Virus record (IMG/VR): IMGVR_UViG_648276647_000018
DNA: 11,959 nucleotides
Source of the DNA: a virus
Taxonomy: Duplodnaviria > Heunggongvirae > Uroviricota > Caudoviricetes
Strand: one strand, 5' to 3'
Below are positions 1,240-11,959 of this stretch, one piece after another (the first letter of the stretch is position 1; each line of letters starts with the position of its first letter). The translations under genes were made by a program, and so were the position numbers. The notes below the pieces were generated by a model. It did not search any database. It saw nothing but the letters and a program-made list of their open reading frames with translations, and was not told the DNA's origin.

Positions 1240-2598
1240 ATGCCAAATAACTACCATCAATACATCGAAGACGTTAGTGATGATATAAAGACATGTCTTG
1301 AAGGAATGGGATGCCAACCCATACTTTTTGTTGGATCGGGATTAACCAAGAGATATCTTTCTGGCCCAAACTGGGAAGAACTTCTTCAGCAACTTGCTAA
1401 TGAATGTCCTAACATCGATAAAAGATTTGCCTATTATAAACAGAAATACCCCGAGTTGATTGATATCGGCAGTGTATTTTCTGATTCTTATAACGAGTGG
1501 GCATGGGGTGATGGAGAGAAAGAATTTCCAGCAGAGTTATTTGATGCAGGCAATGAGCCAAGTATTTATTTTAAATACAAAGTATCTAGTATTTTCAACT
1601 CATTGTTACAAGAAAAAGAAATCGTAAACAACGGTGAAATTGAACTTCTGAGAAAGATTCACCCTCATTCAATCATCACAACAAATTACGACAAATTACT
1701 TGAATCGATATATCCTGAGTTTACCCCCATTATAGGCCAAAAAATCCTTTACGCTAATCACGGTAGCATTGGTGAAATACTTAAAATACATGGTTGCTGC
1801 TCCACTCCTGAAAGCATAATAATAAACCGCGATGACTACGATGACTTCATAAAGAAGAAGAAATATTTAAGCGCAAAACTGCTTACTTTCTTTGCTGAAC
1901 ACCCTCTTCTATTTATAGGTTACAGCGCAGAAGACTCGAACATAAAAAACATACTATCTGATATTGATGAACTACTTTCAGAAAATGGAGATGTCATTCC
2001 AAATATATACATTTTAGAATGGACGAGCAAACAAAATGAAAGTGAATACCCACGCCGTGAACGGCTGATTCAAGTATCTGCAAACAAAAGCATTAGAATA
2101 AAAAGTATAGTAGCAAATGACTTCTCTTGGGTATTTTCAGCGTTTGGCGCGAACAGAGCACTTGATAACATAAATCCCAAATTATTGAGGGCACTTTTAG
2201 CTCGCACTTACGATCTCGTCAGAACTGATATACCTCGCAATCCTGTCCAAGTTGATTACCGAGTTTTATCAAGCATTAGCGAGTCAGAAGGTGAATTAGC
2301 GAAATTATATGGTATCGCCACATCGTCAGATGGTATGGCATTTAATGCCAGTTATCCTTTTACTTTAACCACGCTAGGGCAATCACTTGGTTTCAAAGGC
2401 TGGCATGATGCGAACAAACTATTAGAAGTAGTTAAAAACATCACGAACGTAGACATCAAGACATTCGATAACAAATACCACTATGCAATAATGAACGGTG
2501 ATGAGATTCAGTCCCATAGATATTCAAACTATCTTCGAGAACTCCTCGAAAAGGTTAGGGATGGAGAGGAGTTTGAGTTAGGAATAAAGGCTCCATAA
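1240..2598 (+). CDS. SIR2-like (sirtuin-fold, SIR2_2-type) protein, 452 aa, with a C-terminal domain of unknown function; candidate single-gene anti-phage effector.
   Basis: Strong SD (AAGGAG) 6 nt upstream of the ATG. Motifs: PILFVGSGLTKRYL (Rossmann Gly-rich loop, aa 27-40), IITTNYDKLLE (putative catalytic Asn149, codon 1684-1686), ILKIHGC (putative catalytic His184, codon 1789-1791) and LLFIGYSAEDSNI. The gene is clearly more AT-rich than the GC-rich P4 backbone. It lies between int and cos. Confidence 0.85.
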   Translation: MPNNYHQYIEDVSDDIKTCLEGMGCQPILFVGSGLTKRYLSGPNWEELLQQLANECPNIDKRFAYYKQKYPELIDIGSVFSDSYNEWAWGDGEKEFPAELFDAGNEPSIYFKYKVSSIFNSLLQEKEIVNNGEIELLRKIHPHSIITTNYDKLLESIYPEFTPIIGQKILYANHGSIGEILKIHGCCSTPESIIINRDDYDDFIKKKKYLSAKLLTFFAEHPLLFIGYSAEDSNIKNILSDIDELLSENGDVIPNIYILEWTSKQNESEYPRRERLIQVSANKSIRIKSIVANDFSWVFSAFGANRALDNINPKLLRALLARTYDLVRTDIPRNPVQVDYRVLSSISESEGELAKLYGIATSSDGMAFNASYPFTLTTLGQSLGFKGWHDANKLLEVVKNITNVDIKTFDNKYHYAIMNGDEIQSHRYSNYLRELLEKVRDGEEFELGIKAP

Positions 2599-7449: not shown

Positions 7450-9783
7450 ATGAAAATGAACGTAACCGCCACCGTCAGCCATGCGCTCGGCCACTGGCCG
7501 CGTATTCTCCCGGCGCTGGGGATTCAGGTGCTGAAAAACCGTCATCAGCCCTGTCCGGTCTGTGGCGGGAGTGACCGCTTCCGTTTTGATGACAGGGAGG
7601 GGCGCGGCACCTGGTACTGCAATCAGTGTGGTGCCGGTGACGGCCTGAAACTGGTTGAAAAGGTGTTTGGTGTTTCCCCGTCCGATGCGGCCGCAAAGGT
7701 GGCTGCCGTGACCGGCAGCCTGCCCCCGGCTGACCCGGCAGTGACGGCTGCCGCCGGTGCTGAAACAGACGCTGCCCGGAAGAACGCCGCCGCACTGGCA
7801 CAAACCCTGATGGCGAAAACCCGTCCCGGAACCGGTAACGCCTACCTGACCCGCAAGGGCTTTCCCGGCCGGGAATGCCGGATGCTGACCGGCACACACA
7901 GAGCCGGTGGCGTGAGCTGGCGCGCCGGTGACCTTGTGGTGCCACTGTATGACGACAGCGGCGAACTGGTTAACCTTCAGTTAATCAGTGCTGACGGCCG
8001 TAAGCGCACCCTGAAAGGCGGACAGGTCAGGGGCACCTGTCACACCCTTGAAGGACAGAATCAGGCAGGAAAACGTCTGTGGATAGCGGAGGGATACGCG
8101 ACCGCACTTACCGTGCATCACCTGACCGGTGAAACGGTGATGGTGGCGCTTTCTTCCGTGAACCTCCTTTCTCTGGCCAGCCTTGCCCGACAGAAGTATC
8201 CGGCCTGTCAGATTGTCCTTGCCGCAGACCGTGACCTCAGCGGTGACGGCCAGACAAAAGCCGCCGCAGCCGCAGATGCGTGTGAGGGCGTTGTTGCCCT
8301 GCCGCCGGTCTTCGGTGACTGGAATGATGCCTTCACGCAGTACGGCGGGGAGGCCACCCGTAAGGCCATTTACGATGCCATCCGGCCACCGGCTGAAAGC
8401 CCGTTCGACACCATGAGCGAAGCGGAGTTTTCCGCCATGAGTACCAGCGAAAAGGCCATGCGTATCTATGAGCATTACGGCGAGGCGCTCGCGGTCGATG
8501 CCAACGGCCAGCTTCTGTCCCGTTATGAAAATGGTGTCTGGAAGGTGCTGCCACCACAGGACTTTGCCCGGGATGTGGCCGGGCTGTTTCAGCGTCTGCG
8601 CGCGCCGTTCTCCTCCGGGAAGGTGGCCTCCGTGGTGGACACCCTGAAGCTGATTATTCCGCAGCAGGAAGCCCCCTCCCGCCGCCTGATTGGCTTTCGT
8701 AACGGCGTGCTCGACACGCAGAACGGCACGTTCCACCCGCACAGTCCGTCACACTGGATGCGTACCCTGTGCGATGTGGATTTCACCCCGCCGGTGGAAG
8801 GGGAAACGCTGGAAACCCACGCCCCCGCGTTCTGGCGCTGGCTTGACCGTGCCGCCGGTGGCCGTGCGGAAAAACGCGACGTGATTCTGGCCGCACTGTT
8901 TATGGTGCTGGCAAACCGCTACGACTGGCAGCTCTTTCTGGAGGTGACCGGTCCCGGCGGCAGCGGCAAAAGTATCATGGCCGAAATAGCCACCCTGCTG
9001 GCCGGGGAGGATAACGCCACGTCGGCCACCATCGAGACGCTGGAATCCCCGCGTGAACGTGCCGCGTTAACTGGCTTCTCACTGATACGCCTGCCGGACC
9101 AGGAAAAATGGAGCGGCGACGGTGCCGGACTCAAGGCCATCACCGGCGGCGACGCGGTGTCCGTTGACCCGAAATACCGGGATGCGTACTCCACGCATAT
9201 CCCGGCGGTGATTCTGGCCGTGAACAATAACCCGATGCGCTTCACCGACCGCAGCGGCGGCGTGTCACGCCGGCGGGTGATTATTCACTTCCCGGAACAG
9301 ATAGCCCCGCAGGAGCGCGACCCGCAGCTTAAGGACAAAATCACCCGCGAGCTGGCGGTCATCGTGCGTCACCTGATGCAGAAGTTCAGCGACCCGATGC
9401 TCGCCCGGTCACTGCTTCAGTCCCAGCAGAACTCAGACGAGGCACTGAACATCAAACGGGATGCCGACCCGACGTTTGATTTTATCGGCTATCTGGAAAC
9501 CCTGCCGCAGACCAGCGGCATGTATATGGGGAACGCCAGTATCATCCCGCGTAATTACCGTAAATACCTCTATCACGCCTATCTGGCCTACATGGAGGCA
9601 AACGGCTACCGGAATGTACTCAGTCTGAAAATGTTCGGGCTGGGGCTGCCGGTGATGCTGAAGGAATACGGACTGAATTACGAGAAGCGCCATACCAAAC
9701 AGGGGATACAGACCAACCTGACGCTGAAAGAGGAAAGCTACGGCGACTGGCTGCCAAAATGTGACGACCCTGCAACAACCTGA
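7450..9783 (+). CDS. alpha: Alpha: bifunctional DNA primase / helicase with C-terminal iteron-binding domain.
   Basis: 777 aa with an AAGGAGA SD. N-terminal zinc ribbon (CPVCGGSDRFRFDD...WYCNQCG). TOPRIM-like motifs (IAEGYATALTV, LAADRD). Walker A GPGGSGKS (nt 8951-8974). The length matches P4 alpha. Confidence 0.95.
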   Translation: MKMNVTATVSHALGHWPRILPALGIQVLKNRHQPCPVCGGSDRFRFDDREGRGTWYCNQCGAGDGLKLVEKVFGVSPSDAAAKVAAVTGSLPPADPAVTAAAGAETDAARKNAAALAQTLMAKTRPGTGNAYLTRKGFPGRECRMLTGTHRAGGVSWRAGDLVVPLYDDSGELVNLQLISADGRKRTLKGGQVRGTCHTLEGQNQAGKRLWIAEGYATALTVHHLTGETVMVALSSVNLLSLASLARQKYPACQIVLAADRDLSGDGQTKAAAAADACEGVVALPPVFGDWNDAFTQYGGEATRKAIYDAIRPPAESPFDTMSEAEFSAMSTSEKAMRIYEHYGEALAVDANGQLLSRYENGVWKVLPPQDFARDVAGLFQRLRAPFSSGKVASVVDTLKLIIPQQEAPSRRLIGFRNGVLDTQNGTFHPHSPSHWMRTLCDVDFTPPVEGETLETHAPAFWRWLDRAAGGRAEKRDVILAALFMVLANRYDWQLFLEVTGPGGSGKSIMAEIATLLAGEDNATSATIETLESPRERAALTGFSLIRLPDQEKWSGDGAGLKAITGGDAVSVDPKYRDAYSTHIPAVILAVNNNPMRFTDRSGGVSRRRVIIHFPEQIAPQERDPQLKDKITRELAVIVRHLMQKFSDPMLARSLLQSQQNSDEALNIKRDADPTFDFIGYLETLPQTSGMYMGNASIIPRNYRKYLYHAYLAYMEANGYRNVLSLKMFGLGLPVMLKEYGLNYEKRHTKQGIQTNLTLKEESYGDWLPKCDDPATT

Positions 9784-10882: not shown

Positions 10883-11959
<1,077 letters not shown>

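Follow-up and report, generated by a model that had tools for sequence, protein, structure and literature searches.

Single-protein SIR2 effectors are models of how one polypeptide couples the recognition of an infection to the depletion of nicotinamide adenine dinucleotide (NAD+). Among the described examples, ThsA is a NAD+ hydrolase (NADase) under the control of its C-terminal domain. In ThsA and DSR2, the sensor is reported to be the non-SIR2 part, which in DSR2 recognizes a phage protein; ligand- or protein-induced filaments or oligomers are documented for ThsA, KomC, DSR2, and Avs5. Here, we analyze a SIR2-family gene (1240‒2598, + strand) in an 11,959-nucleotide (nt) stretch of DNA from a Caudoviricetes virus (IMG/VR record IMGVR_UViG_648276647_000018, hereafter the window). 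The gene encodes a protein of 452 amino acids (aa), WP_001133507, and is the sole gene in the int-psu hotspot of a P4-like satellite. We consider the chances about even that this protein is a SIR2 NADase of the defense type that is complete in one polypeptide and in which a C-terminal module controls activation.

ThsA (476‒497 aa) is similar in size to the window protein, and no solved SIR2 domain is nearer than that of ThsA, whether sequences (7uxt, E = 1.5e-10) or folds (8btp, E = 2e-10) are compared. However, the window protein has no SLOG/STALD domain: the ThsA profiles are confined to aa 117‒251 (one model to 221‒291), and Pfam finds nothing of this kind. The locus also differs from Thoeris in that the cassette contains no ThsB/TIR gene and no neighbor is conserved in eight loci. 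DSR2 is a single-gene SIR2 NADase whose SIR2 domain aligns to that of the window protein at E = 5e-9, but DSR2 comprises about 1000 aa, including a large C-terminal region, and the NCBIfam Dsr2 model scores only 14.6 bits on the window protein against a cutoff of 1400. Unlike SIR2-HerA (Nezha), the locus has no HerA (DUF87) gene, and a second gene between int and psu was not found.

The gene is already catalogued, and the novelty of the locus lies only in a distinct C-terminal module on a SIR2 scaffold of the PDC-S25 type. Rousset et al. (2022; PMC9122126), who described the int-psu hotspot of P4-like satellites, list WP_001133507 in Table S1A as a single-gene 'SIR2_2' hotspot locus. Their clone pFR88 from E. 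coli M605, whose published 399-nt excerpt matches window 1119‒1517 exactly, stands in Table S2B among the 'additional tested systems' and is absent from Table S2A, which holds the validated ones; seven of the 19 tested cargoes robustly resisted at least one of eight coliphages (PMC9122126). This 'SIR2' system has the same accession as the window gene, with no difference at the gene level, and its C-terminal region is not described in that paper. In the Domainator paper, the cargo is cluster 12 (Rousset system 9) and is labelled 'Sir2-like (Likely a NADase)'. No description of the C-terminal region was found in the literature searched (PDC-S25, the accession, SIR2 with winged helix-turn-helix or winged helix, and DSR3).

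The SIR2 domain and its extent

The N-terminal part of the protein is a SIR2 domain of the NADase type (aa 1‒305; 1240‒2154, + strand), as judged from Pfam, Foldseek, and invariant motifs. SIR2_2 (PF13289) matches aa 144‒266 at E = 4e-27, and its score of 95.4 bits is well above the cutoff (24.5). The catalytic equipment is intact: the motifs GSG (32‒34), TTNYD (N149 and D151), and KIHG (H184) are invariant in an alignment of 39 sequences, and when the protein is aligned to ThsA and DSR2, N149, D151, and H184 coincide with the catalytic motifs TTNYD and HG of these proteins. WP_001133507 is predicted to have NADase activity. The ORF is a genuine gene: full-length homologues match at up to E = 1e-296, with identities of at least 52% across Pseudomonas, Vibrio, Xenorhabdus, Cohnella, and Methanoperedens.

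An earlier note on this DNA, made from the letters alone, had placed the end of the SIR2 core at about aa 221‒235. This boundary is too early, as the Pfam match already runs to aa 266 and phmmer alignments with ThsA extend to aa 300. In the AlphaFold2 (AF2) model of the full-length protein, which is based on the 39-sequence alignment and has a mean predicted local distance difference test score (pLDDT) of 77.6, strands at 256‒261, 274‒280, and 283‒292 and a helix at 296‒303 precede a connector of low confidence. Foldseek matches this model to the SIR2 domains of ThsA, KomC, and DSR2 at E~1e-10, with about 300‒340 alignment columns both for ThsA and for the complete SIR2 domains of KomC and DSR2 (264‒277 residues; TM score 0.57‒0.67 on the target). 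Since the strands at 256‒292 and the helix at 296‒303 are covered by these alignments to entire SIR2 domains, the SIR2 fold reaches approximately aa 305 and leaves an orphan region of roughly 147 aa (about aa 306‒452, nt 2155‒2595). The PADLOC profiles of ThsA, Dsr1, Dsr2, and LmuA stay inside the SIR2 part, at aa 117‒258, except for one ThsA model that extends to aa 291; together with the profiles of the Ago-associated SIR2 proteins, they cover no more than aa 117‒300.

The orphan C-terminal region

The segment 1987‒2598, which the earlier note had singled out as a C-terminus of about 200 aa with no recognizable domain, corresponds to aa 250‒452 and the stop codon of the 452-aa open reading frame (ORF) at 1240‒2598 on the + strand. 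The orphan nature of the C-terminus is borne out, although its length shrinks to the 147 aa given above. For aa 250‒452, neither Pfam nor NCBIfam has a matching family, the best PHROGs match is insignificant (E = 0.08), and PDB sequences match only at E = 0.03 or above. Nor do profiles of SLOG/STALD, TIR, HerA, APAZ, or STAND match outside the SIR2 part. A match to the designed protein 9ytq (E = 0.028) was judged not meaningful, and Pfam matches to the YhaV toxin, DUF6139, Bro-N, and REase-like families (E of at least 0.045, in at most two of 31 family members) were treated as noise. On the other hand, the region is not free of motifs: twenty positions are invariant among the aligned homologues, including R317, R322, R328, D330, P332, W388, D410, Y413, Y428, and S429. 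The mean pairwise identity of the C-terminal region is 0.51‒0.61, so that its conservation comes close to that of the SIR2 domain (0.59).

The orphan region consists of a conserved helical connector (aa 306‒363; 2155‒2328), a compact domain predicted to be winged-helix-like (aa 364‒445; 2329‒2574), and a variable tail (aa 446‒452 with the stop codon; 2575‒2598; mean pairwise identity 0.20), all on the + strand. Two independent AF2 runs, on the full-length protein and on aa 296‒452 alone, agree on the secondary-structure elements. The connector (NPKLLRALLARTYxLVRxDIPRNP...GELAKLYGI) has predicted helices at 313‒327/330, 340‒347, and 352‒356, with pLDDT values of 33‒67, mostly below 50, in both models. 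Its residues L316, R317, A321, R322, Y324, R328, D330, I331, and P332 are invariant in the 39 sequences, down to 52% identity, and the column conservation of aa 311‒330 (0.86) is at the level of the catalytic motifs. Since the connector is well conserved yet poorly modelled as a monomer, it fits an inter-subunit or switch element.

The following domain is modelled with pLDDT values of 80‒94. Helices at 365‒371, 376‒382, and 389‒402, strands at 414‒419 and 422‒428, and a helix at 430‒440 give the element order α-α-α-β-β-α, which would be a winged-helix topology, and N369, P373, G384, W388, D410, Y413, Y428, and S429 are invariant. The structural neighbors of the domain are the N-terminus of P1 ParA (score 6.3, 82 residues, 4.1 Å), the DNA-binding domain of RacA (5.7, 55 residues, 2.0 Å), Vibrio cholerae ParA2 (5.5, 78 residues, 4.8 Å), the DNA-binding domain of pSK1 Par (5.4, 51 residues, 2.2 Å), and, as the fifth match, Xrn1 (5.1, 90 residues, 5.4 Å). 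We consider with moderate confidence that the fold class of aa 364‒445 is winged-helix-like and most similar to the MerR/excisionase class, so that the fold is probably familiar. The note had suggested that the region may be a new trigger-recognition domain; structural comparison of the C-terminal model gave no confident match to a known ligand-binding domain; a Foldseek search against the PDB returned nothing below E = 1.

The winged helices of the MerR, excisionase, and ParA N-terminal types share neither sequence-level similarity nor a Foldseek match with aa 364‒445. The HTH and MerR families of Pfam are not matched even weakly by any of the 31 family members, and hhalign found no match between the C-terminal profile and the helix-turn-helix (HTH) regulator ORF of the window (5398‒5664), which from its sequence is presumably of the AlpA/excisionase type. 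The stretch HRYS-x3-L-x2-LL appears to us to resemble the MerR signature YRxY(S/T)...L..L, a resemblance that we take only as a lead. The domain further differs from these types in being fused to an enzyme instead of a dimerization coil or an ATPase, and in not being basic: its net charge is −3 (family mean 0.2) and its isoelectric point (pI) is 5.5, with a pI of 5.1 for the whole protein. Since the domain is non-basic, the simple reading as a DNA-binding domain is weakened.

A profile of aa 296‒452 gave 218 matches at E ≤ 1e-3 among 1.84 billion representative proteins. The full-length matches are 440‒600 aa long and carry the match at about residues 295‒460. Ten matches of odd length or position were scanned; all eight with any Pfam match carry SIR2_2 upstream (one weakly), and the two shortest have no Pfam match. 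The remaining matches are short and most likely represent metagenomic gene fragments. Since the C-terminal module is seen only in fusion with one SIR2 clade, it is clade-specific and not a portable domain.

The window protein matches the PDC-S25 profile PDLC04968 at E = 2e-84, over positions 10‒358 of 517 only. BC1912 of the Bacillus prophage phBC6A51 (538 aa; profile positions 9‒515) and a protein of Mycolicibacterium phage J1 (531 aa) match the PDC-S25 profile over its full length, and both align to the window protein over aa 20‒338 only, with 31‒33% identity. When the C-termini of the window family and of BC1912 and the phage J1 protein were compared by hhalign, the first connector helix alone was recovered, KLLRALLARTYDLVRTDIP against KTMRQIKSQIYELVKTNDP, and nothing beyond this helix was similar. 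The first half of the connector, to about aa 338, is common to the phage-encoded PDC-S25 proteins, and beyond this point the C-terminal module is, by sequence comparison, swapped relative to canonical PDC-S25. Canonical members (BC1912; PHROG 2695) are, like the window protein, single-gene SIR2_2 proteins on mobile elements, and besides the SIR2 domain they have the first connector helix in common with it (31% identity over aa 20‒338), but they have 517‒540 aa, and the last ~110 residues of the window protein show no detectable similarity to them. Since the module is replaced after about aa 338 between subfamilies, the pattern is the one expected of a specificity domain.

Disrupted alleles of the gene were also observed. 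In E. coli MEI4BO-21, H7 (NZ_CM149565.1), the SIR2 gene is split by an IS5-like ISKpn26 element. Frameshift-truncated alleles that have lost everything after aa ~288‒296 are represented by the proteins P0083 (289 aa, 42 member sequences) and P0085 (Pectobacterium). This recurrent inactivation of the gene removes the connector and the winged helix.

The satellite cassette and the surroundings of homologues

The backbone of the window is that of a P4-like satellite, as seen from its ORFs and from the immunity RNAs of Rfam. The left border of the int-psu hotspot is a P4-type integrase of 403 aa (1‒1212, + strand), annotated as "integrase domain-containing protein" in the record of a genome whose SIR2 gene is 100% identical to that of the window. 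The right border is psu (2969‒3541, − strand), and the gene in the same position of record L001 is named 'phage polarity suppression protein'. After psu follow delta and sid, also on the − strand, and the alpha primase lies at 7450‒9783. Rfam matches the C4 antisense RNA (5912‒5999, 74 bits), isrK (5736‒5813), and the c4 a1b1 target (c4-a1b1, 5723‒5775), and the presence of these RNAs confirms the P4-type backbone. Lying between the P4-type integrase and psu/cos, with psu, delta, sid, and the alpha primase downstream, the SIR2 gene is placed as a cargo of the int-psu hotspot.

A Shine-Dalgarno sequence read from the DNA (AAGGAG, 1228‒1233, + strand) precedes the ATG of the SIR2 gene by 6 nt. 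A GC-rich, terminator-like hairpin followed by a T run (2627‒2649, + strand) starts 29 nt past the stop codon; its RNA fold has −11.9 kcal/mol with z = −2.0, and a consensus scan did not report it. Since the gene has a ribosome-binding site of its own and a hairpin with a T run after its stop codon, it forms a cassette of a single gene, with int on one side and cos/psu on the other. Five complete E. coli genomes carry the gene with 100% identity of the DNA, and in H1, the one of the five that was inspected, the int/SIR2/psu surroundings are annotated alike, with the ORF named 'SIR2 family protein' WP_001133507. In the genome NZ_AP021894, the same element is located between ssrA and ypjA. Beyond the alpha primase of the window, about 1.2 kb of low-GC DNA (9784‒10981; GC 0.37‒0.43) contains no long ORF or tRNA, and an ORF at 10982‒11959, presumably csiD/glaH-like from its sequence, extends off the right end.

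The surroundings of the homologues, mobile elements and defense islands, are typical of defense genes. The P. aeruginosa homologue (73% identity; loci L004, L005, and L006) adjoins a Pf-like filamentous prophage with Zot and DUF2523. At L004, an unannotated ORF of 256 aa (8387‒9157) lies 34 nt downstream on the same strand; this ORF is not conserved at the other loci. The Cohnella homologue lies within an integrase-flanked island and the Vibrio homologue near a reverse transcriptase gene; that of Thioalkalivibrio adjoins genes for an Eco57I-type enzyme and Mrr and toxin-antitoxin genes, and that of P. putida is flanked by GmrSD and DarTG. Plasmids of Vibrio, Photobacterium, Bacillus, and E. 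coli, some of them conjugative, also carry homologues. The archaeal homologue of Candidatus Methanoperedens (L012), with 55% identity and the full architecture, stands beside an Mrr-type nuclease in a region with MCM and PolB-exonuclease-like proteins, and it suggests that the complete protein was passed from one domain of life to another.

The neighbors of the Xenorhabdus homologue are of the phage type (NinG, Tad2-like). In Xenorhabdus sp. KJ12.1 (L013), the SIR2 homologue is followed at a distance of 2 kb by a gene with a Tad2-like domain (10361‒11224), which stands among NinG and DUF1133 genes. Tad2 proteins are anti-Thoeris sponges. An all-against-all BLASTP comparison of the ORFs within 5 kb at eight diverse loci (E ≤ 1e-5) found no shared neighbor gene. 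Since no neighbor is shared, the protein may work alone or with host or phage factors.

Possible roles of the C-terminal module

The C-terminus is best read as a regulatory or sensor module. The suggestion of the earlier note that this region is a sensor gains from its conservation, its restriction to one SIR2 clade, the swap relative to PDC-S25, and the lack of a conserved partner, and it loses from the failure of pFR88 to protect robustly. We propose a scheme modelled on ThsA, DSR2, KomC, and Avs5, in which the connector and the winged-helix module would hold the enzyme inactive. An infection-specific cue bound by the module would then change the oligomeric state, and this change would switch on NAD+ hydrolysis, so that the infection aborts and the cell ceases to support phage growth. 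We lean slightly toward a phage protein, rather than a nucleic acid, as this cue, since the domain is not basic and the conserved residues on its surface are aromatic and polar. The distal, subfamily-specific domain fits a specificity element. Defense, sensing by the C-terminus, and activation by oligomerization would each be part of this scheme.

Several observations weigh against such a defense enzyme with a sensing C-terminus. In the only published test, seven systems protected against at least one of the eight coliphages, and pFR88, whose excerpt is identical to the window, does not belong to these seven (PMC9122126). Since pFR88 gave no robust protection, even the defense role of the gene is putative. 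Biochemistry for any member of the family was not found in the literature searched. The C-terminal domain shows no hypervariability, with a mean identity of 0.51 against 0.59 for the SIR2 domain, and a domain engaged in an arms race might vary more. The frameshifted and IS-interrupted alleles (IS, insertion sequence) show that the gene is easily lost.

Since the structural neighbors of the domain argue for nucleic acid, we keep a nucleic-acid cue as the main rival. The C-terminal winged helix would then bind nucleic acid, either as part of a DNA-sensing NADase (for phage DNA, DNA ends, or unusual DNA), as a DNA tether, or as a repressor of its own promoter, which we regard as possible but rather unlikely. 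The α-α-α-β-β topology, the conserved wing (K407, D410, N411, Y413, H414, R/K427, Y428, and S429), and the three invariant arginines of the connector (R317, R322, and R328) speak for it. However, the neutral to acidic charge of the domain, the mainly aromatic and polar rather than Lys/Arg residues conserved in the putative recognition helix and wing, and the negative HTH/MerR and Foldseek searches described above do not. The module could also be a scaffold for oligomerization or autoinhibition, with sensing elsewhere, such as in a helical insertion of the SIR2 domain (aa ~40‒130), or the enzyme could respond to some broad shift in metabolism. Apart from the catalytic parts, no segment is better conserved than the connector, which is also common to distant PDC-S25 relatives with other C-termini and is poorly modelled as a monomer; all of this would suit a scaffold, as would the absence of hypervariability in the C-terminal domain. 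We nevertheless hold this explanation to be unlikely: a module swap distal to aa ~338 is what one would sooner expect of a specificity module than of a core scaffold, and ThsA and DSR2 are reported to sense through the non-SIR2 part.

The SIR2 fold supports deacylation and ADP-ribosylation besides NAD+ hydrolysis, and the protein might be a non-defense enzyme, a sirtuin-type deacylase or ADP-ribosyltransferase that acts on a host or helper-phage target to which the winged helix directs it. The lack of protection against the eight coliphages is the main argument for such a role, and some relatives are named 'NAD-dependent protein deacylase' in database records. However, the closest relatives by sequence and by structure, ThsA, DSR2, and KomC, are defense NADases, and neither the PDB sequence matches nor the 50 Foldseek matches listed include a chain of a classical sirtuin. 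The contexts of the homologues are defense islands, and the hotspot is one in which seven of 19 tested cargoes protect against at least one phage. A non-defense role seems to us very improbable.

The defense NADase with a C-terminal control module also has a bolder form, in which the winged-helix-like domain of about 85 residues and the arginine-rich connector constitute an undescribed minimal trigger receptor that gates the assembly of the SIR2 NADase. We consider this form doubtful. If it is true and the cue is a nucleic acid, the protein would be the simplest known nucleic-acid-activated NADase, working without an Argonaute, HerA, or STAND partner. The negative phage panel would, if the minimal receptor exists, reflect a narrow specificity, for instance for P2-like helpers or the competitors of these helpers.

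If the module is only a scaffold, the result is routine. A SIR2 protein with a small, uncharacterized regulatory domain would not surprise a specialist. The solved examples, ThsA, DSR2, and Avs5, have either a large sensor or one that relies on a second-messenger partner. The SIR2 family described here, which is widespread on satellites, prophages, and plasmids of Proteobacteria and Firmicutes and has one archaeal homologue, would possess a regulatory module of about 145 aa, which is among the smallest. This small size and the naturally swapped C-terminus of the closest relatives would make it a tractable system, and the identity of the trigger would explain the negative coliphage panel for a frequent cargo of the P4 hotspot.

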